Origin: a virus
Taxonomy: Duplodnaviria > Caudoviricetes
Direction: 5' to 3' (one strand)
Length of the DNA stretch: 64,000 nucleotides
IMG/VR virus record: IMGVR_UViG_3300032138_000012
Span: 5,836 to 69,835 of that record
Below are positions 5,352-43,351 of the stretch, in pieces. The notes beneath the pieces are model-generated. The model worked only from the letters and a program-made list of their open reading frames with translations, did not search any database and was not told the origin of the DNA. Position 1 is the first letter of the stretch, and each line of letters begins with the position of its first letter. Position numbers and translations under genes: made by a program.

Positions 5352-6290
5352 CTACTCCTTCACGTACTTCGCATATTCGCTTAGCGGCACACCTAGTTTT
5401 TTTGATATGGCTACCTGTGATGGTGTGAGTCTCACAGTACCTTTGCGCGCCGTTACGGGTCCACCTCTATTAACAGAGGCAACCGTTTGAGTCGGCGTTG
5501 AACTTTGAAACTTATGAGGAAAATTATCCTTCATTCGTTTATCTAATTCATTATAGTATGTTTTTGTCGAAGGGTCAACACCTTCTTGCACTAGATTACG
5601 ATGAATCGAGAACGCTGTCAAGGTCATAGGTTCATCCTTCCCGAACCACTCATTTTTCTCAGCCCAGTCCTCTGCCTGTGGATCTGGAGGTGGTGGGGCC
5701 TGTTGAGCCTGTTGTTGAGCCTGTTGCTGCTGATATTGCTGTGCAGCAGGACTTTGCGCTGCTTTAGCCATTCTTTCACGCTGTGCAACAGTGGCTTTTG
5801 CCCTTTCCGATTCAACCGCCAATCTTGCTAAATCCTGTTGTGCGGCTATAACTGCATCCGCATCACCATTGTCCATGGCCACTTTAAGCTTGGCCTTAGT
5901 GTCCTCAGTTTCCGCTTTTACGCGCTGTTCATATTCAGCGATATATCCACGGTCCAAGCTTCCAGCCCTTTGTCTTAATTGCTCAGCTTCACCTTGAACG
6001 CCTTGCGCAAAGTCAATGGCGGCTTTTTCACGTCTTTCGGATTCTCTTAATCTCTTTGTTAACTTGTCTATACGGGATTGAACTTTTTTCCCGTAGTCTT
6101 CCATTTCTTCTGAAGATGCTGTTTCTTCAACTACTACTTCCTTTTCCTTAACTTCTTCTTTAGGGGAAGTATCTACGATTGTTTCCTTTTTATCGGATAT
6201 CTCAACATCAACAGACTCCCCTTCTGCAGGAAGGTCAACCATTTTAGCGTCCGCTTCTGATTGTGTCTGTATAGTGGTTTCTGCAGGCAT
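5352..6290 (-). CDS. Capsid scaffolding protein
   Basis: 312 aa acidic coiled coil; basic C-terminus VRLTPSQVAISKKLGVPLSEYAKYVKE; position before the MCP. Confidence 0.7.
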   Translation of the reverse strand: MPAETTIQTQSEADAKMVDLPAEGESVDVEISDKKETIVDTSPKEEVKEKEVVVEETASSEEMEDYGKKVQSRIDKLTKRLRESERREKAAIDFAQGVQGEAEQLRQRAGSLDRGYIAEYEQRVKAETEDTKAKLKVAMDNGDADAVIAAQQDLARLAVESERAKATVAQRERMAKAAQSPAAQQYQQQQAQQQAQQAPPPPDPQAEDWAEKNEWFGKDEPMTLTAFSIHRNLVQEGVDPSTKTYYNELDKRMKDNFPHKFQSSTPTQTVASVNRGGPVTARKGTVRLTPSQVAISKKLGVPLSEYAKYVKE

Positions 6291-16706: not shown

Positions 16707-17728
16707 TATTCACCGAACACGTCAAATGCCCCGGCCACTGGCACCGATGCAATGCCCGCAGTAACTGCCTTTCCTTTCGTTGGAGCGAACATGCTTTTAT
16801 CGCCTTTCAGCCATTTACCACCCTTAAGAAGGGATTTTATTCCGTGCACTCCACCAAGAACTGTTCCGCCAACCATTCCCGCCATTTGTGATTCCGGATC
16901 CCCGTACAAGTTAAGATTGTATTCATGCTCCGGTTTGGCGCCGAATCCTTGCTCACCAATCATCCTTGTTAATGGATTCCATGAGTCCTTAAGATTGACT
17001 GCCGAGTGGCGCATCATGGACCCCTGTCCATCGTTATCAAACTTGAAGATGCCGTAGTTTGGCATCTGCAGGTCGCCGTGCTTGGTCCAGGCAAGGTTAA
17101 CGCCCATTGGAATTTCCTTAAAATTTTTAATGTAATAAAAATCGTCATCCTCGTACCAGTCATCCTGCGTTAAGTACTCTTGCTCCAGGTTTTTTACTTC
17201 AGAGGTTGCAGCGTCCGCCACTTCCTTGTTTCCCTTGTATTTTTTCTCAAGATCAGAAAGATTAACAACGTCCAGTCCAAGGGTTTGGTTGAGATGATCA
17301 ATGACTTTCTTTTCATCTAGGGCATAGTCTTGTTTGTAATTTTCAAGGTAACTTATTATGTCAGGATTGTTTCTTTGGTTTTTTGAAATCTTTTGAAAAT
17401 CAGCAGCCTGTAAGTCTGTTGTAAAAAGAGTATTGGCATAGTCATACAGTCCACTGTATTCACCTACAGGATTTATAACAGTCTCCGCTATCGGAAGTGT
17501 TTCTACAACAAAATCAGATACGGTTTTAGCGAGATTATATCCTGTCGCTACCGTATCTCCGAGCATGCCATATTTATTTTCACCATCCGGAATGGCTTCT
17601 GGATTTATGTTTTTATTGGCAACACTTTCCTCTACGGTATGTGTTCCCCCACCTGAAAAGTCCTTAATTAAGCTTGGGTCACGTAAGTGCCGTGTGCTTT
17701 CAAGTAATTTTTGATAATTAACAGCCAT
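16706..17728 (-). CDS. Hypothetical protein, probably virion-associated
   Basis: 340 aa between terL and the 1259-aa gene; Gly-rich hydrophobic C-terminal segments. Confidence 0.55.
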   Translation of the reverse strand: MAVNYQKLLESTRHLRDPSLIKDFSGGGTHTVEESVANKNINPEAIPDGENKYGMLGDTVATGYNLAKTVSDFVVETLPIAETVINPVGEYSGLYDYANTLFTTDLQAADFQKISKNQRNNPDIISYLENYKQDYALDEKKVIDHLNQTLGLDVVNLSDLEKKYKGNKEVADAATSEVKNLEQEYLTQDDWYEDDDFYYIKNFKEIPMGVNLAWTKHGDLQMPNYGIFKFDNDGQGSMMRHSAVNLKDSWNPLTRMIGEQGFGAKPEHEYNLNLYGDPESQMAGMVGGTVLGGVHGIKSLLKGGKWLKGDKSMFAPTKGKAVTAGIASVPVAGAFDVFGE

Positions 17729-19191
17729 TAGTAGTATTTCCTCCTGTTATCCCTAATGCGCTCTTCGTCAGCAAAGTCATCCTTCAGTTCCACGTAGTAT
17801 CCCTGCCGATAGCGCATTAATGCCTGTGTTGTGCTATCAACGTAATCGTCATGGTCCCCAAAGGGAAATGCTGCACACTCCTCGATAACTTCTTCTGCCC
17901 AACGCCTGTCTACTGGAGCGTAAACCGCTCCTGATTCGAATATAGGTGCGACACTGTTTACCCTTGAGTGTTTATCATTTCCCTTCGACGGTGTAAAGTT
18001 AATTACGGGGACCCCCGCCTTTTGGAGCTCGTGGGTCAATGGAAGGCCGCTCGCCTTCGCTTCCACAAGCACCATTTCCGGCTCCCAGTACTTGTATTCC
18101 TCTTGCGCCTTGACTTTTAGTTCAGGAAAATTCCATCTTCCCCTCTTCGCGTCAAGAAGAATAATGCATGGCTTTCCACCCTCATTTGGCTGGAATACAC
18201 CCCATGTTGTTATGGCCGAGTAATCGGCTGTCTCTTTTGACGAGAACGCCGTGTCATAAGACTGTATAACATACTGCAGATCAGGAATCTTGTCACTGTC
18301 CCATTTTTTCCACCACTCACGCTTTATGAGCGCACCCTCCTCGGAGGTTGGTGCCTGCATCCACTGCGCGTTCCATTTGGTGACGGGAATGGACGCCTTG
18401 ACACGCATGAGACCGTCCAGGTCCCAAAAATTTCCCCACATGGGCTTGTCCTTGATGATGGCAGGAAACTCAACAACTTCCCAGTCATCCGTCATTTCAT
18501 TCTTGCCTTGGGCCTCGAGCAGCTTTCCAGTGAGGTCCTTTACGGACCATCTGGTCATGACCAGTACTATGGCTCCACCCGGCTGAAGACGCTGACGAGG
18601 ACCAGAAGTATACCATTCATAATGAGACTCAAGCACAGTAGGGCTAAGAGCGTCCTGTTCGGAGTGAGGGTCGTCAATAATGAGAAGATCAGCACCCCTA
18701 CCAGTAATAGCGCCACCGACACCAGCAGCAAAATACTCGCCTCCATGATTAGACTCCCAACGGCCTGCCGCCTTAGAGTCCGCTGCCAGTCCGACGCCTG
18801 GAAAAACTTTTTCATATTCCGTTGATTCTATCATGTTCTTCGCCTTGCGTCCAAACCTGATTGCAAGTTCTCCTGTATGCGTTGTCTGAATGAGCTTGGC
18901 CTTTGGATGACGGCCCATGAAGAACGCCGGAAAGAGATGTGACGCAAACTCTGATTTCGTGTGCCTTGGTGGCATGTTGACAATAAGCCTTTTAAGCTCA
19001 CCATTGGCAATACGATTAAGCTTTTCAGCATAGATCTTATGATGCTTTCCCTCAATGAACTCAGGCCAAACAGTCTTGACAAAAGTAAGAAAATCACCTT
19101 GAATCTTTTCACGCTTGTCATCCAAGGCATTCTTGAGAATCAACTTCAGCGTATTCGTATCTAAGGATTCTAATTTAGAAACATTTTCCAT
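17728..19191 (-). CDS. terL: Terminase large subunit
   Basis: Walker A-like LIVNMPPRHTKS, Walker B LLIIDDP, IVLVMTRW, nuclease motifs SYDTAFS..ADYSA and HDDYVDSTTQAL. Confidence 0.93.
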   Translation of the reverse strand: MENVSKLESLDTNTLKLILKNALDDKREKIQGDFLTFVKTVWPEFIEGKHHKIYAEKLNRIANGELKRLIVNMPPRHTKSEFASHLFPAFFMGRHPKAKLIQTTHTGELAIRFGRKAKNMIESTEYEKVFPGVGLAADSKAAGRWESNHGGEYFAAGVGGAITGRGADLLIIDDPHSEQDALSPTVLESHYEWYTSGPRQRLQPGGAIVLVMTRWSVKDLTGKLLEAQGKNEMTDDWEVVEFPAIIKDKPMWGNFWDLDGLMRVKASIPVTKWNAQWMQAPTSEEGALIKREWWKKWDSDKIPDLQYVIQSYDTAFSSKETADYSAITTWGVFQPNEGGKPCIILLDAKRGRWNFPELKVKAQEEYKYWEPEMVLVEAKASGLPLTHELQKAGVPVINFTPSKGNDKHSRVNSVAPIFESGAVYAPVDRRWAEEVIEECAAFPFGDHDDYVDSTTQALMRYRQGYYVELKDDFADEERIRDNRRKYY

Positions 19192-19374
19192 TTTTTAAAA
19201 ATTTTTTTAAGATTGGTATTATAACGTTTTTATACATGATTGTCACCCTCAGACTTGCCGAAGAAAAAATAAAAGAGTCCCACTTTCAAAGGGGGGGGGA
19301 TACCCCCAAGACTTTGCGGATTGCGGACAGTGTAGCGGGCGCGAGCCCTAGCGAGCGCGAGAGCCCGGGCGCCT

Positions 19375-19404
19375 GCGACAAAATGCCGCGCGACAAAGTG
19401 TCGC
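19375..19404. promoter_or_regulatory. Tandem palindromic operator-like pair GCGACA-N3-TG(C/T)CGC
   Basis: GCGACAAAATGCCGC (19375-19389) and perfect GCGACAAAGTGTCGC (19390-19404), upstream of terL. Confidence 0.5.
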
Positions 19405-19480
19405 ACCCCTACATCTTGTGTTGTATTCTTGCAACACCACTAAATACCCGGCCGACTTATCCACAGCTTATCCACAACTA

Positions 19481-19510
19481 ATTGTAATTAGCTATTGCTA
19501 TTACTGTCAA
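19481..19510 (-). promoter_or_regulatory. Sigma70-like promoter pointing toward terL
   Basis: TTGACA (19510-19505), N18, TACAAT (19486-19481); predicted start site falls in the DnaA-box pair at 19457-19476. Confidence 0.5.
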
Positions 19511-19549
19511 TTAGTTTACTATCATAATTAGAAATAGAAAGGACTACAT

Positions 19550-19819
19550 ATGACAAAGTCTGAATTCAAACGCAAGGTTGGAATGGGTTTCTTCTCTTGC
19601 GAGTGGCGTAATAATTCAGGGTCTATCTCTAAAGTTAAAAGAGGTATTCTTGGTGGTTATGCTTGGCGTCACACTAACAATCCAGTTCCAACCAATGTTA
19701 AAGAACATAATGATTATGTTCTAGCATTTAGGGTTGGCAATGGATTACTTCCAGAGCATAGAAGATGGGCAAATATCAACCCATTAACTGTTACGAAAAT
19801 CAACGGAGTTGCCGTATGA
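19550..19819 (+). CDS. Early-type hypothetical protein
   Basis: 89 aa, AAAGGA RBS; RRWANINPLTV motif recalls small SH3-like phage proteins. Confidence 0.65.
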   Translation: MTKSEFKRKVGMGFFSCEWRNNSGSISKVKRGILGGYAWRHTNNPVPTNVKEHNDYVLAFRVGNGLLPEHRRWANINPLTVTKINGVAV

Positions 19820-19992
19820 AATTCAATGTAATAACTTTAATTTGGTCAACAGCATTAGTGCTGTTGACTTTCCAATTATTTCTATTGGGTTATGATTGGG
19901 AATTCACAAACACAATCGTATATAAATTTGTTCTCTTATTGAATGGGTTTATGTTTGGTGTAGTAATAACAGATTGGACTACTAATGACTGA
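19816..19992 (+). CDS. Small two-TM membrane protein
   Basis: Start moved to MKFNVITLIW (ATGA overlap); two hydrophobic stretches. Confidence 0.55.
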   Translation: MKFNVITLIWSTALVLLTFQLFLLGYDWEFTNTIVYKFVLLLNGFMFGVVITDWTTND

Positions 19993-20275
19993 TAATTTAC
20001 CAATGATTACTTCAAATGGTACTGACATAGCACCTCTATTAAAAGAGATGATTGACCATTTAAAGTTAGAAAAAGAATTAGGCAACCTTGACAAGTTGGC
20101 TGATGTAAAAGTTCCAATGACTTCAAGTGCTGATTGGAAACTAATTTGCGGTGTGTTATGCAATTCAATAGTTGAATGGGCTTCACAAAACAGAAATGAA
20201 GGGGGATTAGAATTAATCAAGCATATGCAAGGTGATATTGGATACCTAGTCAAAAGATTGGGTCTAGTGGAATAA
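19985..20275 (+). CDS. Hypothetical protein
   Basis: 96 aa, overlapping start, followed by terminator. Confidence 0.6.
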   Translation: MTDNLPMITSNGTDIAPLLKEMIDHLKLEKELGNLDKLADVKVPMTSSADWKLICGVLCNSIVEWASQNRNEGGLELIKHMQGDIGYLVKRLGLVE

Positions 20276-20301
20276 GTAGTAGTCCACTTATAAACCACGA
20301 T

Positions 20302-20329
20302 AAAGGGGGGATTTTTCCCCCCTTTTTTT
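20302..20329 (+). terminator. Rho-independent terminator
   Basis: AAAGGGGGGA-TTTT-TCCCCCCTTT followed by a T tract. Confidence 0.85.
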
Positions 20330-20618
20330 ACGCCCAAATTCCAGGAAGTCAGGACTGATGTCCTGGCGTCCCGGGCGATCCAGGAAATAACTGGGGAAAT
20401 CATTGGAGTTTCACTTGGAGTTTGTCAGGAGCTTGAACGACAGGCGCCCCGGTCGTTTAAACCTGGCCTGTGGATAACCTGTGGATAAGTGTGGAGTTTG
20501 GGGAGTTTGTGAGAGGACTTACAGATATGACTACCATGCCTCTCATCTCAATATAGTCATTCATACGCTTCCTCTGAATATACTATACTAATATTGGGTG
20601 GGATATCACTAGGTAAAC

Positions 20619-20699
20619 CGTTTTAACACCCAAATTCTTATGCTCGAATTGTGGTAAAGACCACGCTTCTGGTCAGTTTCCTAACTGTTCCGCAAAACG
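20619..20699 (-). ncRNA. Candidate structured small RNA (multibranch fold)
   Basis: Closing stem CGUUUU/AAAACG around three hairpins: CAGUU-AGGA-AACUG, GUGGU-CUUU-ACCAC, AAUUC-N8-GAAUU; downstream of a sigma70 promoter with no ORF. Confidence 0.35.
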
Positions 20700-20731
20700 A
20701 GAAACAGATGTAACACTCTATTTCTATTCTC

Positions 20732-20760
20732 ATAATACTACGAATCCAAATTCAAAGCAA
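20732..20760 (-). promoter_or_regulatory. Sigma70-like promoter
   Basis: TTGCTT-N17-TATTAT; DnaA box 18 bp upstream of the -35. Confidence 0.55.
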
Positions 20761-21349
20761 CAGCCAATTCAAATATCTTGTGGATAACTTTTCCGTGAAC
20801 TTTTGCCCGGGCCCTGCGGGACATCCCATCATGGTCCTCGATCCGACTTCCCAGTCTTCCAGGAGTTTGGGAGTTTGAGCTGCATCAGCCCAGCAGCCAC
20901 TGGATAACCAGGAGCAGGAGCAGCAGCTTCAGGGGAATTAATAACATAAAAAACGGCACAATACCTCAACTTTCTGTAGCCTCTTCAATTGTATAACACA
21001 TCTCCTGTGAAGGCGTCAACCCGGGCCTCGAACTTTTTCGCGGAAAACCTGACCTTTTATACCAAAGGAAGTCCCGGCGCGCCCGGTGCGTCCCAGCTCC
21101 TGTCCTGAAGGCCAACAAAAAATGGCGGACTTCCGGGAGTTTGGGAGTTTGCGGAACGCTAACCAGGATCCCGGTAACCTGAAGGGTAATCCCAGCTCCA
21201 AAATAAATGGCGGAAATCCGGGAGTTTAAGAGATTGACATCTCGGAGTTTCCCGGCGCCCGCAGCGGACCCCGGGCGAACTTATCCACAGGTTATCCACA
21301 GGATACTCACAAGGGAGTTTGGGGAGTTTGAGCTCCCCAAATCTATGGT

Positions 21350-21556
21350 TTAATGTTCTTGTGGTCTAAATATATCTTTTATTTGTTGACCGAATCCTCT
21401 CTCGAGTTCCTCGGCTTGTGATTCTGCTCGCTTTGCGTTGCGTGTCATCACGGGAACAACCCCGTCATAATGACTCGCAATTCTATTTAATATGTCGTTG
21501 CTTTCTTCTAGGCTATTGGCAATCTTTTCCAATACCCTTATTAAATCTTGATCCAT
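21350..21556 (-). CDS. Small hypothetical protein embedded in the repeat region
   Basis: 68 aa, GGAGAA RBS, own promoter. Confidence 0.65.
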   Translation of the reverse strand: MDQDLIRVLEKIANSLEESNDILNRIASHYDGVVPVMTRNAKRAESQAEELERGFGQQIKDIFRPQEH

Positions 21557-21590
21557 AGTTCTCCATTTCTAATTCTTAATGAATTGTCTT

Positions 21591-21619
21591 ATTATACCAT
21601 TTTCTTATCCACAATGCAA
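21591..21619 (-). promoter_or_regulatory. Extended -10 sigma70 promoter with a DnaA box in the spacer
   Basis: TTGCAT-TGTGGATAAGAAAATGG(17)-TATAAT. Confidence 0.7.
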
Positions 21620-21884
21620 CATCTCTTTTAAATTATTTTCCTGTCAGGACTGGCTGCGTCTCCCGGGCCCCGGTGAAACAGGACAGGCATCTCGATCCAC
21701 GGATAAAATGGCGGAACTCCGGGAGTTTCGGAGCTTTGGAACGCCCGCTGCGTCTCCCGGGCGCCGGGCAACAGGATCCACGGATCAAAAATAAATGGCT
21801 GTTTTGCGGGAGTTTGGGAGTTTGAGAAAGTAACCAGGCGCCGGGCGCCCAGGACCACTGGGACTTATCCACAGGTTATACACG

Positions 21885-22292
21885 TTAATGGGGAGTTTGG
21901 GAGTTTAAGAGCTTGACAAGGTCCATGTCCGCGAGCCTTCCATGGTATAACCCGGGCACTTGGTCCAGGGTCATATGGCCTAGGTCCTTGGTTTTGCAGC
22001 CATGAAACAATTTGACCTCGCCTCCCTGAACCAGGCTAACAAGGATGTAGGACTGTGATCCCGCAACTGCGTGTTTCATATTCCAGGCAATTTGAAAGGG
22101 TGATAATGTTATTCGATTATTAGGTTGAGCTATCTTCAACTCAATTGTGAAAAATCCTGTGTCCCTGTGATAAATCAAACAATCCGGGAATCCTGGAGTA
22201 ACATAACTTTCAAGGCGTGAAACAATATAATTACCATCGTCTAATAACGTCTTTACACTCTTCCAAAAAGTTGTTTCCGGCTTTACGGTCAT
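21885..22292 (-). CDS. PD-(D/E)XK nuclease, VRR-NUC / resolvase-like
   Basis: E..FW..RLES..TPGFPDC..FTIELK..LSPFQIAW motif. Confidence 0.7.
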   Translation of the reverse strand: MTVKPETTFWKSVKTLLDDGNYIVSRLESYVTPGFPDCLIYHRDTGFFTIELKIAQPNNRITLSPFQIAWNMKHAVAGSQSYILVSLVQGGEVKLFHGCKTKDLGHMTLDQVPGLYHGRLADMDLVKLLNSQTPH

Positions 22293-22852
22293 ACTTTGTC
22301 TTGTCTTTTACTATCCTCTGCTTGTACTTCGGTGATGTCTTTAGGTCCTTCGCTATCGGATTCCTCTTCGACCGAAAGGACAGTTTTATTTCCTTCTTTT
22401 TTAAATTCACCTGTTAATCCTAACTCCTTTAGTTGTTTTAAAACGTCTTCACGGGACATAGAATCAATACTTCCTGTCCTGATTTCTTTGCGGTCAATGT
22501 ACAATCCTGCGGCCTGCCCTCGCAACCGCTCAGCGTTAACAGCAGCACTATAAGACTTTTCTTGTAGTGATTTCTCACGCAATCTTGCCAACTCCTGTAC
22601 ATGCTTGTTTAATTTAACCTCGTGTGTCTTTTCAATCTCAGCTCTTCGCTTGATAATAGCTTCTACAACCTTTGGGTATCTTTTACCATTTAATAGTTGA
22701 GAGGAAGTCACATTAGCTGATCCCTCTGAATATCCAGCCTGTCTTGCACATTCAGTTGGTGTCAACCTACCCTCATTCTCAGTGAATATCTTGACAAATA
22801 TCTGCTGCTTGTCAGTCAATCCATCAGCCCTGATTGGATACTTTTTTGCCAT
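22289..22852 (-). CDS. terS: Terminase small subunit
   Basis: LTDKQQIFV..TPTECARQAGYS..ANVTSSQLL HTH pattern and AAVNAERLRGQAAGLY; start moved to MAKKY. Confidence 0.75.
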   Translation of the reverse strand: MAKKYPIRADGLTDKQQIFVKIFTENEGRLTPTECARQAGYSEGSANVTSSQLLNGKRYPKVVEAIIKRRAEIEKTHEVKLNKHVQELARLREKSLQEKSYSAAVNAERLRGQAAGLYIDRKEIRTGSIDSMSREDVLKQLKELGLTGEFKKEGNKTVLSVEEESDSEGPKDITEVQAEDSKRQDKV

Positions 22853-22855
22853 ATT

Positions 22856-23049
22856 TGTGGCACCACTTGTGGCACCACTTATTCTTCTGTCTACCATCCG
22901 TAAACCCCTGGTATAGTTATATTTTTACTCATTTTATTTTCTAAAAAACAAAAAAGTGCCTTGCGTCGTCTAGAGTAGTGACACATAGGTGCCACATAAT
23001 AAAGCGTTGATATATAAGAATTAATCATCAAATGTGTCACTGTGGCACC
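22856..23049. repeat. TGTG(G/T)CAC motif cluster upstream of terS
   Basis: TGTGGCACCACT tandem at 22856 and 22868; inverted copies at 22978-22985 and 22988-22996; direct copies at 23033 and 23041. Confidence 0.55.
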
Positions 23050-23145
23050 AGTTTTGATCCCGGTACGAAAATAAAAAAAACATTTGAGCAAATATATCAC
23101 TATAGACGCCACATTACAAAATAAAAATTGACCGATTCCTGCCAT
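22891..23145 (-). CDS. Possible hypothetical protein
   Basis: 84 aa with a GGAAGGGG RBS-like sequence, but it crosses a motif-rich, probably regulatory stretch. Confidence 0.25.
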   Translation of the reverse strand: MAGIGQFLFCNVASIVIYLLKCFFYFRTGIKTGATVTHLMINSYISTLYYVAPMCHYSRRRKALFCFLENKMSKNITIPGVYGW

Positions 23146-23335
23146 TTCCCCTTCCTATCCATCCCCTGTTGATCAGTTGGTGCACGAATGCGTGCACATG
23201 GGCCTTGGACCGCGAGCCCATAAGCTGTTTTATCTCCTCATACGACGGGGCGAACGAATTCGCCTCAATGTAGTCCTTGATGAGATTGTACACCTCCAGT
23301 TGACGTGGTGTAAGTCCTTTCTTATTTCCTGTCAT
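23114..23335 (-). CDS. LexA-type winged-helix DNA-binding domain only (no peptidase domain)
   Basis: LTPRQLEVYNLIKDYIE....PSYEEIK..G.RS...VH..V..L..RGWI.R....RSI matches the LexA N-terminal domain. Confidence 0.75.
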   Translation of the reverse strand: MTGNKKGLTPRQLEVYNLIKDYIEANSFAPSYEEIKQLMGSRSKAHVHAFVHQLINRGWIGRGNGRNRSIFIL

Positions 23336-23741
23336 ACGTATTGTCACGCCTCCCCGGAAACTCATTGTATCCCTTGGCATCCGGATTGGGTCCGTAGTTC
23401 TTTCTTACATGCCTGTGCATCTCAGAGTTGCCCCACTCATTTATGACCTCACTGGTGATTGATTTTTCAAGGGTGTCCTTGAGCTGCTTTTCGCTCTCGT
23501 CCAGTTCCAGCCGCTTCGGTGCGTTCTTGCGAACGTACGTTGATATCCTTGACCACGTGATTATTATGCCGCTTTTCTTTGGCCTGAGATAGCCCTTTTC
23601 CTGGTCCAGGCGTGGAAGTTCCTCCTCCTTGTCAAAATGTTCCTTTATGAATTCAAGCACGTCCTCATCCTTCTCAAACTGCTTGACCACCTTCTCGATG
23701 ACCTTCTTGTCCTGCCACAGGTTAATCTCGTACGTTGTCAT
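23322..23741 (-). CDS. Hypothetical protein
   Basis: Start moved to MTTYE (AAGGAG RBS); charged. Confidence 0.6.
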   Translation of the reverse strand: MTTYEINLWQDKKVIEKVVKQFEKDEDVLEFIKEHFDKEEELPRLDQEKGYLRPKKSGIIITWSRISTYVRKNAPKRLELDESEKQLKDTLEKSITSEVINEWGNSEMHRHVRKNYGPNPDAKGYNEFPGRRDNTYDRK

Positions 23742-32965: not shown

Positions 32966-33212
32966 TGGGTTCCAGCTCTTCCTGCATTTTCTCCGATGTA
33001 GTTCTTTCTTCTTTCTGCCTGATGGATTCCTTCATGGAAATATCCAGTATTTCTTTTTCCTCCAGCATCTTGGTATGAAAATCTTTTTCCTCATATAAAA
33101 ATTTTGTGTAGCAATATTCACAAACACCTTTATTATCTTTGTCCACTGTATAATACACAATAGGATGGTCATCCGCGCATGAAAATGTTTTGGTGTGGAT
33201 TATTTTTATCAT
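32952..33212 (-). CDS. zf-CHCC zinc-finger protein
   Basis: FSC..DHPIVY.....GVCEYCYTKF matches the C-H-C-C pattern. Confidence 0.7.
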   Translation of the reverse strand: MIKIIHTKTFSCADDHPIVYYTVDKDNKGVCEYCYTKFLYEEKDFHTKMLEEKEILDISMKESIRQKEERTTSEKMQEELEPIDSK

Positions 33213-33538
33213 ACGACACGTCCAGTCCTTTTGCATTCATAGCAGAAACGATCAAATCGTCCTGACTTGGTAAAAGTTGTTGAACATATGTAACATTCCA
33301 TTTCACCCAGTGCCGGATCACTCTTAAAACGATGGCGCATGCGTGTCTTTGTATATTTTGAATCGGGAGGTGGTGTGTATCCATTTTTGACTTTCTCCCG
33401 GTAGAGGACTCCGAGTACGGCATTTTTAGATTTGTTAAAAATTTTTCCAACTTCCTCCGCTGTATGATTCTTAATCAACTCACCGGCAAGCTTTAAGTCT
33501 TTTTCTTTCCATTCCATTTGTGGTCCAGGTTTAACCAT
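33209..33538 (-). CDS. gcrA: GcrA-like regulator (N-terminal HTH plus Cys cluster)
   Basis: W....L.L......TAEEVGK.F.KSKNAVLG.L.R resembles the GcrA N-terminus; C-terminal CYIC..CYEC. Confidence 0.6.
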   Translation of the reverse strand: MVKPGPQMEWKEKDLKLAGELIKNHTAEEVGKIFNKSKNAVLGVLYREKVKNGYTPPPDSKYTKTRMRHRFKSDPALGEMECYICSTTFTKSGRFDRFCYECKRTGRVV

Positions 33539-33767
33539 GCTTATATCTCTTTCTGTTTCTCTTGTTCCAGCGCTTATGCCATCCATAATTGCTTATCTTG
33601 CTGCCCCCATGCTCGCACATGGCATAGAAGCGATCCTTGGCCAAAAACACTAAATTACCCGGGTAGAATCGTACCACCCAACCCTTTAAAGCCCGATATA
33701 GGCCCGCTATGAGCTTTTTTATTTGGCTGAATACCGTCGTTTCCTCGCCTGGGTCCCAAACGTCCAT
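33531..33767 (-). CDS. Hypothetical protein with basic C-terminus
   Basis: 78 aa, coupled junctions. Confidence 0.5.
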   Translation of the reverse strand: MDVWDPGEETTVFSQIKKLIAGLYRALKGWVVRFYPGNLVFLAKDRFYAMCEHGGSKISNYGWHKRWNKRNRKRYKHG

Positions 33768-42498: not shown

Positions 42499-42805
42499 TT
42501 TTACCTCTCAAATCTATTTCTAAATCGTAATATTTCTTTTCGTCTCGGTCCCACTTTAGAACTTTGAACTTTCCTCTATTCATTTCGCTGGCAATCGCAC
42601 CAGCAAGTGCAATTATAGCAGGATCACCAATCAAAAGCAAGTAGTCATCATCACAAAATGTGGATAACTCTTTTTTTAATTTGTGAGTCAATGGTCCAGA
42701 GGATAAAACTATTTGTTTATTATCCGGAAGCAATATTTTTAAATCACCGAATTTCTCCGCAGACCTGATATTTCTTCCCATTTCTTGCAAAACGTAAACT
42801 GTCAT
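42491..42805 (-). CDS. Conserved hypothetical protein
   Basis: MTVYVLQE..AEKFG..DDDYLLLIGDPA..LKWDR motif. Confidence 0.65.
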   Translation of the reverse strand: MTVYVLQEMGRNIRSAEKFGDLKILLPDNKQIVLSSGPLTHKLKKELSTFCDDDYLLLIGDPAIIALAGAIASEMNRGKFKVLKWDRDEKKYYDLEIDLRGKND

Positions 42806-42816
42806 AATTATATTTC

Positions 42817-42845
42817 TTGACTCGTATTATATACTATGATAGAAT
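42817..42845 (+). promoter_or_regulatory. Sigma70 promoter for glycosylase/SNF2 genes
   Basis: TTGACT-N17-TAGAAT. Confidence 0.7.
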
Positions 42846-42854
42846 GCTTGTCAA
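42826..42854 (-). promoter_or_regulatory. Perfect-consensus sigma70 promoter for the replication operon
   Basis: TTGACA (42854-42849)-N17-TATAAT (42831-42826). Confidence 0.85.
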
Positions 42855-42868
42855 CATTAGAAATAAGA

Positions 42869-43351
42869 ATGAATATATTTTTTTTACATAGGGATCCGTC
42901 CCGTGCTGCCAAAGCTCAATGTGATAAGCATGTAGTAAAGATGGTACTTGAAACTACGCAAATGTTATCTACAGCCATTAGACGACGTGGTTATGACGCA
43001 GGATATAAATCAGCTTATCCCAATCATCCCATGACAATATGGGTTGGTGATACACGTGATAATTTTTATTGGGCGCTTTGTCACGCAGAAGAATTATCTA
43101 AAGAATATACCATGCGTTATAAAAAGTTTCATGCATGTCAAAAAATTATTGATGCCATTCGCGAACTTTATCCAAGCCTTTCGTCTTTTAAGAATATTAC
43201 TGATCCTCCACAGTGCATGCCGGATGAATTTAAACAAGATGATTTTGTCCGTGCCTATAGAGACTATTATATACATAAAATTGGTCAATGGAAAAGACCA
43301 CCAAAATGGTTTAAAAGTTTAGACGCAGATCCTTATTATGCCAATGTATAA
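42869..43351 (+). CDS. denV: Pyrimidine-dimer DNA glycosylase (DenV-like)
   Basis: MNIFFL..P..AA...CDKHVVKM.LE..QMLST, H.NHP..IW motifs. Confidence 0.75.
   Translation: MNIFFLHRDPSRAAKAQCDKHVVKMVLETTQMLSTAIRRRGYDAGYKSAYPNHPMTIWVGDTRDNFYWALCHAEELSKEYTMRYKKFHACQKIIDAIRELYPSLSSFKNITDPPQCMPDEFKQDDFVRAYRDYYIHKIGQWKRPPKWFKSLDADPYYANV

Follow-up and report, generated by a model that had tools for sequence, protein, structure and literature searches.

Beyond its place at bacterial origins, DnaA is known as a bacterial transcription factor and roadblock, and several phages are known or proposed to borrow it. Phage lambda engages host DnaA through consensus boxes at pR and ori-lambda for promoter stimulation, P1 oriR does so through tandem boxes flanking iterons for origin function, and T5 possibly does so as well. 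Clusters of high-affinity boxes outside oriC also act as titration loci, as at datA and at the DnaA-box clusters of B. subtilis. Here, we describe a dense array of DnaA boxes in a 64,000-nucleotide stretch of viral DNA (the window; positions 5,836 to 69,835 of the IMG/VR record IMGVR_UViG_3300032138_000012), which by its sequence is from a podovirus related to the Pelagibacter phages HTVC023P and HTVC027P. The array spans the mostly non-coding 2.7-kb gap between terL, encoding the large terminase, and two adjoining genes, p135 and terS (small terminase). We give an even chance to the reading that these boxes are high-affinity host DnaA sites used as operators in the main control region between terS/p135 and terL, and DnaA-gated transcription, with titration as a side effect, appears to be the best reading of the locus.

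Work in E. coli provides the relevant precedents. Chromatin immunoprecipitation sequencing (ChIP-seq) found that in vivo DnaA binds mainly pairs of boxes spaced 2–3 bp apart (PMC11317965), and E. coli DnaA is described as repressing, activating, or roadblocking elongating RNA polymerase (PMC11317965; Stringer, Fitzgerald and Wade 2024). The same paper cites the work of Schaefer and Messer on DnaA at asnC (cited in PMC11317965).

A preliminary description of the window had listed nine exact TTATCCACA/TGTGGATAA 9-mers, and all were found in place: 19457, 19468, 21281, 21292, 21605 and 21865 on the plus strand and 20469, 20480 and 20779 on the minus strand (coordinates are those of the window). 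Over the array (19457–21873), these nine boxes compare with about 0.03 expected by chance. For the whole window, dinucleotide-preserving shuffles gave an expectation of 0.78 boxes per 64 kb, and 0/100 shuffles reached 10. The tenth exact match is isolated, lies inside a coding sequence (42659–42667, minus strand) and is probably a chance match. One-mismatch variants, which are located outside the array, are at most barely enriched (30 observed vs 20.9 expected).

Seven of the nine boxes take part in four tandem direct pairs with a 2-bp gap and thus an 11-bp period, all of which are real as first described. Double box 1 (19457–19476, plus strand) consists of two exact boxes and lies upstream of the promoter of a plus-strand small-gene operon. 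Double boxes 2 (20469–20488, minus strand) and 3 (21281–21300, plus strand) together make up a perfect inverted repeat of 24 nt, and double box 3 carries a degenerate third unit. Double box 4 (21865–21884, plus strand) joins an exact box to TTATACACG, found as reported at 21876 (21876–21884), and a terminator-like hairpin (21852–21834, minus strand) comes after it. The nine exact boxes match the 9-mer TTATCCACA or TT(A/T)TNCACA, and each pair consists of two co-oriented boxes separated by 2 bp, within the 2 or 3 bp given for DnaA double boxes (PMC11317965).

The array is conserved in close relatives. We used a family set of 121 loci (805 kb), retrieved via a GGAGTTT doublet motif that accompanies the boxes, and a box-independent sample of 37 loci, from relatives picked by TerS protein similarity only (74–100% identity) and extending at least 2 kb downstream of terS. 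The family set holds 563 exact boxes, compared with 8.7 for composition-matched shuffled 9-mers, and boxes, doublets and genes follow one another in a syntenic order throughout the family. In the TerS-picked sample, 37/37 loci have at least three boxes downstream of terS (median 6), at a density of 2.03 per kb vs 0.034 per kb upstream. One relative, 92% complete, has 12 boxes, 7 of which fall in the terS–terL region. The 11-bp phase is specific, as 38% of the family boxes have a near-box (up to 2 mismatches) at +11, with hardly any having one at 10, 12 or 13; the partner box varies most at position 5, as in the consensus TTATNCACA. Distant HTVC023P-type contigs (TerL 51–65% identical) also have boxes beside terL or terS, although their companion repeats are quite different. 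Thus, the boxes and their 11-bp pairing, whose conservation the preliminary description had treated as a test of its proposal, are kept in the close family; the boxes are not kept in four more distant named relatives (HTVC027P, HTVC023P, 023Pt_psg01 and DSL-LC04; TerL 56–67% amino acid identity), which have zero exact boxes genome-wide and carry their own lineage-specific repeats in the terS–terL gap.

Comparative evidence lends good support to the identification of the 9-mers as DnaA boxes, first made from the motif. At least 120 bacterial species across many phyla have the exact 20-mer double box, which is often part of a multi-box array, and dnaA signature motifs lie within 8 kb at 46/120 of these bacterial loci vs 0/178 viral control loci. 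Outside bacteria, at least 91 viral contigs unrelated to the family, ranging from 32 to 67% GC, carry this tandem pair too. A search of the phage proteins for Bac_DnaA_C (DnaA domain IV) returned no homologue, and a phage-encoded copy of the DnaA DNA-binding domain was ruled out because no domain IV gene was found. Host DnaA is the likely binder, since the 20-mer is common to many bacteria and viruses, the 2-bp spacing is one that E. coli DnaA prefers in vivo, and the phage lacks a detectable domain IV. Runs of three to six copies of the 20-mer were also seen in metagenome-assembled genomes of Binatia, Halanaerobiales and Vulcanimicrobiota (L312, L316 and L359), two of which space them at 22-nt steps, forming long phased DnaA-box arrays.

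A phage protein could bind the 9-mer instead. One candidate is an 88-aa protein encoded just upstream of terS (23114–23380, minus strand), which consists of a LexA-type winged-helix DNA-binding domain only (PF01726, E 2.2e-13; phrog_362, transcriptional repressor), the peptidase and dimerisation domains being absent. Its gene is kept beside terS in the box-bearing family and has no homologue in the four box-less named relatives, and alphaproteobacterial LexA binds direct repeats of 11-bp period. However, this protein would not explain why the same 20-mer sits beside dnaA in many phyla and recurs in at least 91 unrelated viral contigs. The box also stays constant while the family-specific repeats drift: the GGAGTTT doublet becomes GGAGTTAG in a sub-lineage of the close family and gives way to other repeats in distant relatives, with the boxes unchanged. 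One box-bearing relative (L056) has no homologue of the LexA-type protein in the 10.7 kb fetched. A more natural winged-helix operator is offered by two adjacent GCGACA-N3-TGTCGC palindromes (19375–19404), which occur nowhere else in the window; relatives also have them upstream of the box pair. A dimeric regulator of the phage, possibly the LexA-type protein, may use them as its operator, and either the palindromes or the doublets would seem more natural targets for it than the boxes. We therefore see a slim chance that the 9-mer belongs to a phage protein.

The boxes occupy regular positions relative to transcription signals. The two unpaired boxes fall in promoter-like registers of two kinds. 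Class A is the predicted promoter of s68, a gene for a 68-aa protein to which we assign no function (21350–21556, minus strand; homologues in 71 family loci). It reads TTGCAT, box (21605–21613), TGG, TATAAT, the last two forming an extended -10 (21591–21619, minus strand). The box (TGTGGATAA) makes up nucleotides 1–9 of a spacer of exactly 17 nt, and the remaining 8 nt end in TGG. This layout recurs in 39 unique family sequences, with a 17-nt spacer in all of them. When TTGnnn-17-TATAAT promoters were sought upstream of s68 homologues without requiring a box, 39/43 had one in the spacer. Within the spacer, positions 1–9 are 91–98% conserved vs 58–74% for positions 10–14.

Class B has the general form box, 18 nt, TTGnnn -35, 17 nt, -10. 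The example in the window, read from the sequence, is a box (20779–20787) followed by 18 nt, TTGCTT, 17 nt and TATTAT (20732–20787, minus strand). The 41 nt from the end of the box to the -10 are fixed in 74 unique family sequences. In some relatives, s68 itself is under a class B rather than a class A promoter, and 87/89 unique s68 upstream regions carry a box. In both classes, a box overlaps or lies at a fixed distance from the -35 or -10, as in DnaA-regulated promoters, and we consider both to be candidates for DnaA-responsive promoters. Sites for CcrM (GANTC) were considered in the class B spacers as well, but are present in 16/84 only and are not enriched.

Double box 1 also has a preferred position. 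In most relatives, the promoter of the plus-strand small-gene operon has this pair upstream of it, and 49 unique relatives have a box or pair at this position; at about 10 loci there is none in the 520 nt upstream of terL. In the window, it additionally occupies +1 to +20 of a minus-strand TTGACA-18-TACAAT promoter (19510–19481) facing terL. We set this second promoter aside, as it is strong here but was not seen by eye in most relatives.

The other three pairs are found at the ends of transcription units, directly after the stop codons of p135 (double box 4) and s68 (double box 3) and after a small RNA (double box 2). In these 3'-end modules, the order is GGAGTTT doublet, box pair, GC motif. 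An exact box is present in 75/117 unique p135 3' regions, with a bias in orientation relative to the gene strand of 97 to 3, and in 54/64 unique s68 3' regions, with a bias of 75 to 3. Relatives that lack the pair fill the same slot with a GCGACA-type palindrome or a stem-loop. Because a palindrome or stem-loop can replace the pair, the slot suggests a protein or hairpin obstacle to transcription, as opposed to a DnaA-specific unwinding device. GCGACA-N3-TGTCGC palindromes were noted in the relatives L243, L244, L246, L264 and L214, in some of which they replace the box pair of the 3' module.

The small RNA is an ORF-less unit of about 220 nt (20505–20725, minus strand; ORF, open reading frame) that would be driven by the class B promoter; a doublet and then double box 2 come after it. 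Near its 5' end is a hairpin built on AGAAATAGA, and it ends in a conserved stem-loop (20510–20545), whose 22-nt loop is nearly invariant across relatives. The stem shows compensatory changes between relatives (TGAGAGG/CCTCTCA vs GAAGAGG/CCTCTTC). The RNA has no match in Rfam.

Together, these registers suggest how host DnaA might act, although we infer from sequence and comparison that DnaA binds, which sign the regulation has, and that roadblocking and titration take place. A box within the spacer, as in class A, has a geometry that would repress the s68 promoter, while the class B box and double box 1 have geometries that would suit an activator or modulator. At the 3'-end modules, a DnaA dimer or oligomer could form a conditional roadblock or insulator between transcription units. 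As every replicated phage genome brings in about 10 more strong sites, each site should be less often occupied by DnaA at higher copy number, and this falling occupancy would combine copy number and host state in one input that could time the phage programme. Titration is a likely consequence, since the sites multiply with phage replication; DnaA would be drained from the host origin as a side effect, which could impair host re-initiation. Of the three functions first offered for the array (a DnaA sink, a host-DnaA-dependent early origin and a sensor of host cell-cycle state), the sensor fits best, because the boxes have fixed registers in promoters and recur at gene 3' ends, although the binding and regulation it presumes are conditional as above.

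Several points weigh against DnaA-gated transcription. The GGAGTTT doublets and GC motifs outnumber the boxes, and the region as a whole could have another role, for instance in replication, packaging or injection. All promoters were called by consensus match only, and s68 uses two box positions of conventionally opposite regulatory sign. The four named relatives live without any boxes. Lastly, judged by E. coli ChIP-seq, single boxes such as those of classes A and B may be poor DnaA sites in vivo (PMC11317965).

A stronger form of the proposal would make the array a titration clock. Early in infection, DnaA would saturate about 10 phased double boxes and repress or roadblock transcription, including terS-side read-through to terL and the structural genes; replication would then dilute DnaA over hundreds of sites, so that the blocks would lift and host re-initiation would be starved. 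We regard this extension as decidedly doubtful. If it were true, occupancy by the host initiator would serve as a genome-copy-number timer in a globally abundant group of marine phages.

Alternatively, the array could be mainly a DnaA sink, comparable to datA or the B. subtilis clusters, that halts host re-initiation or derepresses DnaA-controlled host genes. With 9–12 consensus boxes per genome, multiplied by replication, the sites would compete with those of the host, and double boxes are the form that E. coli DnaA prefers in vivo (PMC11317965). A datA-type locus combines its box cluster with an IHF site that promotes DnaA-ATP hydrolysis, and of these features the cluster is present here. 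For a sink, however, number alone would suffice, yet positions, registers and orientations are all conserved, and titration is more likely a by-product of DnaA-gated transcription than a competitor to it. We consider a dedicated sink the least probable of the explanations weighed here.

It is also conceivable that the region is a host-DnaA-dependent origin, in which DnaA oligomers on the phased pairs open nearby AT-rich DNA and recruit host DnaB; in a variant, DnaA would stabilise an R-loop formed by the small RNA or by G-rich doublet transcripts. The preliminary description had credited the phage with its own replisome. Pol A, an AEP primase and a superfamily 1 (SF1) helicase are indeed encoded, along with an SNF2 helicase, but the set does not appear complete, as a search of the 69.8-kb record (estimated to be 86% complete) yielded neither a DnaB-family helicase nor a loader, which favours an origin that recruits the host's. 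The 20-mer is characteristic of oriC and dnaA regions, and an AT-rich island of about 270 bp (20500–20790) has boxes on either side and would be transcribed from a promoter linked to a box. Furthermore, the tandem boxes, with the better-conserved one upstream, resemble the bacterial basal unwinding system, which consists of at least three DnaA-trios within about 16 bp of a box and then an AT-rich unwinding element (PMC8287927). No clear DnaA-trio array was seen by eye beside the pairs, although the published trio criterion (3'-NAN-5') is so loose that it does not discriminate where the sequence is AT-rich (PMC8287927). Three of the four pairs abut GC-rich DNA, which is not an easily melted element, and only pair 1 abuts AT-rich DNA. 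The replication genes are about 15 kb away, and GC skew, proposed earlier as an origin signal and dropped here as a marker, only follows the gene strand. Nor is there the arrangement of an iteron origin such as P1 oriR, with its spacing of about 22 bp, as the doublets are 83–408 bp apart and have no adjacent initiator gene. Unwinding explains neither the swapping of pairs, palindromes and hairpins nor the promoter registers, and the named relatives replicate without boxes. Overall, we think it unlikely that the array is primarily an origin.

The companion repeats that outnumber the boxes consist of nine co-oriented GGAGTTT-(N1-5)-GGAGTTT doublets on the plus strand (20405–21907), which start at 20405, 20493, 20862, 21136, 21221, 21314, 21722, 21809 and 21892. 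Their internal period is 8–12 nt, they are partly in repeat units of about 85 bp, and most have a GC-rich GCGCCCGG-type motif just before them. The doublet is found in more than 118 IMG/VR contigs and is specific to the family. We considered two promoter roles for it. As -35-linked upstream elements, some doublets do precede TTGACA, yet no -10 follows; HTVC027P has analogous CAAGC repeats that abut TTGACA. As promoters for a phage RNA polymerase, they would need a partner, and no T7-type RNA polymerase was found, which is a weak negative given that the control search was also empty. The large phage proteins had no PHROG match.

The region is bordered on the left by terL (17728–19191, minus strand; phrog_38, E 1.6e-104) and on the right by p135 and terS (21885–22897, minus strand), both of which have homologues in the named relatives. 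p135 (21885–22292, minus strand) encodes 135 aa, lies 3' of terS and has a PHROG match labelled 'DNA helicase'; from a motif read by eye in its translation (FPDC...ELK), it may be a small PD-(D/E)xK-like protein. The named relatives, too, have it beside terS, in part without annotation. The gap itself contains three small plus-strand ORFs with a terminator, the minus-strand s68, and about 1.5 kb without convincing ORFs. The three ORFs (89, 75 and 96 aa; 19550–20275, plus strand) have no assigned function and end in a hairpin plus T-run terminator (20305–20321); those of 89 and 96 aa have syntenic homologues in relatives. The control region (19192–21884) is locally about 50% GC, compared with about 40% in the surrounding coding DNA, a reversal of the usual pattern. 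A TAGAAATAGAA(A)GG-type leader was observed just 5' of start codons (19530–19549, 21560–21575 and 42845–42870), and in many relatives it is the base of a 5' untranslated hairpin that encloses variable inserts. Comparison of the region with GenBank phages by blastn gave no match, and neither did Rfam and tRNA scans of the control region. A possible GcrA-like regulator (33209–33586) was dropped, as it had neither Pfam nor PHROG support.

As a piece of DNA, the closest published look-alike is, by sequence features, the injection-stop (iss) region of T5-like phages. That region is also large and mostly untranslated, has repeats, inverted repeats and palindromes, and contains paired and near-consensus boxes that are conserved in relatives (Davison 2020, bioRxiv 10.1101/866236). 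The locus described here likewise has paired boxes within inverted repeats of an untranslated, repeat-rich region. By this analogy, the paired boxes would serve as an injection pause or anchor by tethering incoming or packaged DNA to DnaA at the membrane. T5-like phages have 8 DnaA boxes, with pairs 3 bp apart, in inverted repeats of their large untranslated region (bioRxiv 10.1101/866236); double boxes 2 and 3 here form their own perfect inverted repeat, and variant boxes such as TTATTAACA are common to the T5-like region and this family. The region also adjoins terS, a place at which packaging may begin and some genome ends may thus lie. However, the model put forward for T5 is no more than a proposal itself, and the record is linear without end repeats. 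Injection pausing also predicts neither the promoter registers nor the orientation bias at gene ends. We consider an iss-like role very unlikely. The T5 pairs differ, too, in being 3 bp apart in defined inverted repeats of a terminal repeat (bioRxiv 10.1101/866236), whereas the pairs in this family have a 2-bp gap and its boxes are associated with sigma-70-type promoters and gene ends; the phages are also unrelated.

A text search of the literature for marine phages with DnaA boxes found nothing relevant, and the one paper searched on HTVC023P-type genomes does not mention DnaA, promoters or origins. The locus is distinct in scale and regularity, with a dense, phased and position-fixed array in an uncultured family of marine podoviruses that are kin of the abundant HTVC023P-type pelagiphages, and the array sorts into two promoter architectures and one 3'-end module. 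If DnaA binds it, the array would clearly exemplify how a lytic phage can couple its programme to the replication-initiation state of its host, and such phages could perturb host initiation by titration.

Compared with the other systems, the array shares with the E. coli DnaA regulon direct 9-mer pairs 2–3 bp apart near promoters (PMC11317965), but here about 10 sites are packed into 2.4 kb of a lytic-type marine phage, accompanied by doublet and GC motifs and placed systematically at gene 3' ends. Like the basal unwinding system of oriC, it has tandem co-oriented boxes of which the upstream one is closer to consensus (Pelliciari et al. 2021, PMC8287927), and the identical 20-mer is found in many bacterial dnaA/oriC regions; unlike it, most pairs have no evident trio array or unwinding element beside them, and the pairs swap with other operator cassettes. 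In contrast to lambda and P1, there is no adjacent initiator gene and there are no regularly spaced iterons, and the boxes lie between packaging genes. As at datA and in B. subtilis, predicted high-affinity boxes form a cluster outside oriC, but here their position and orientation relative to transcription signals are conserved, and titration alone needs neither.

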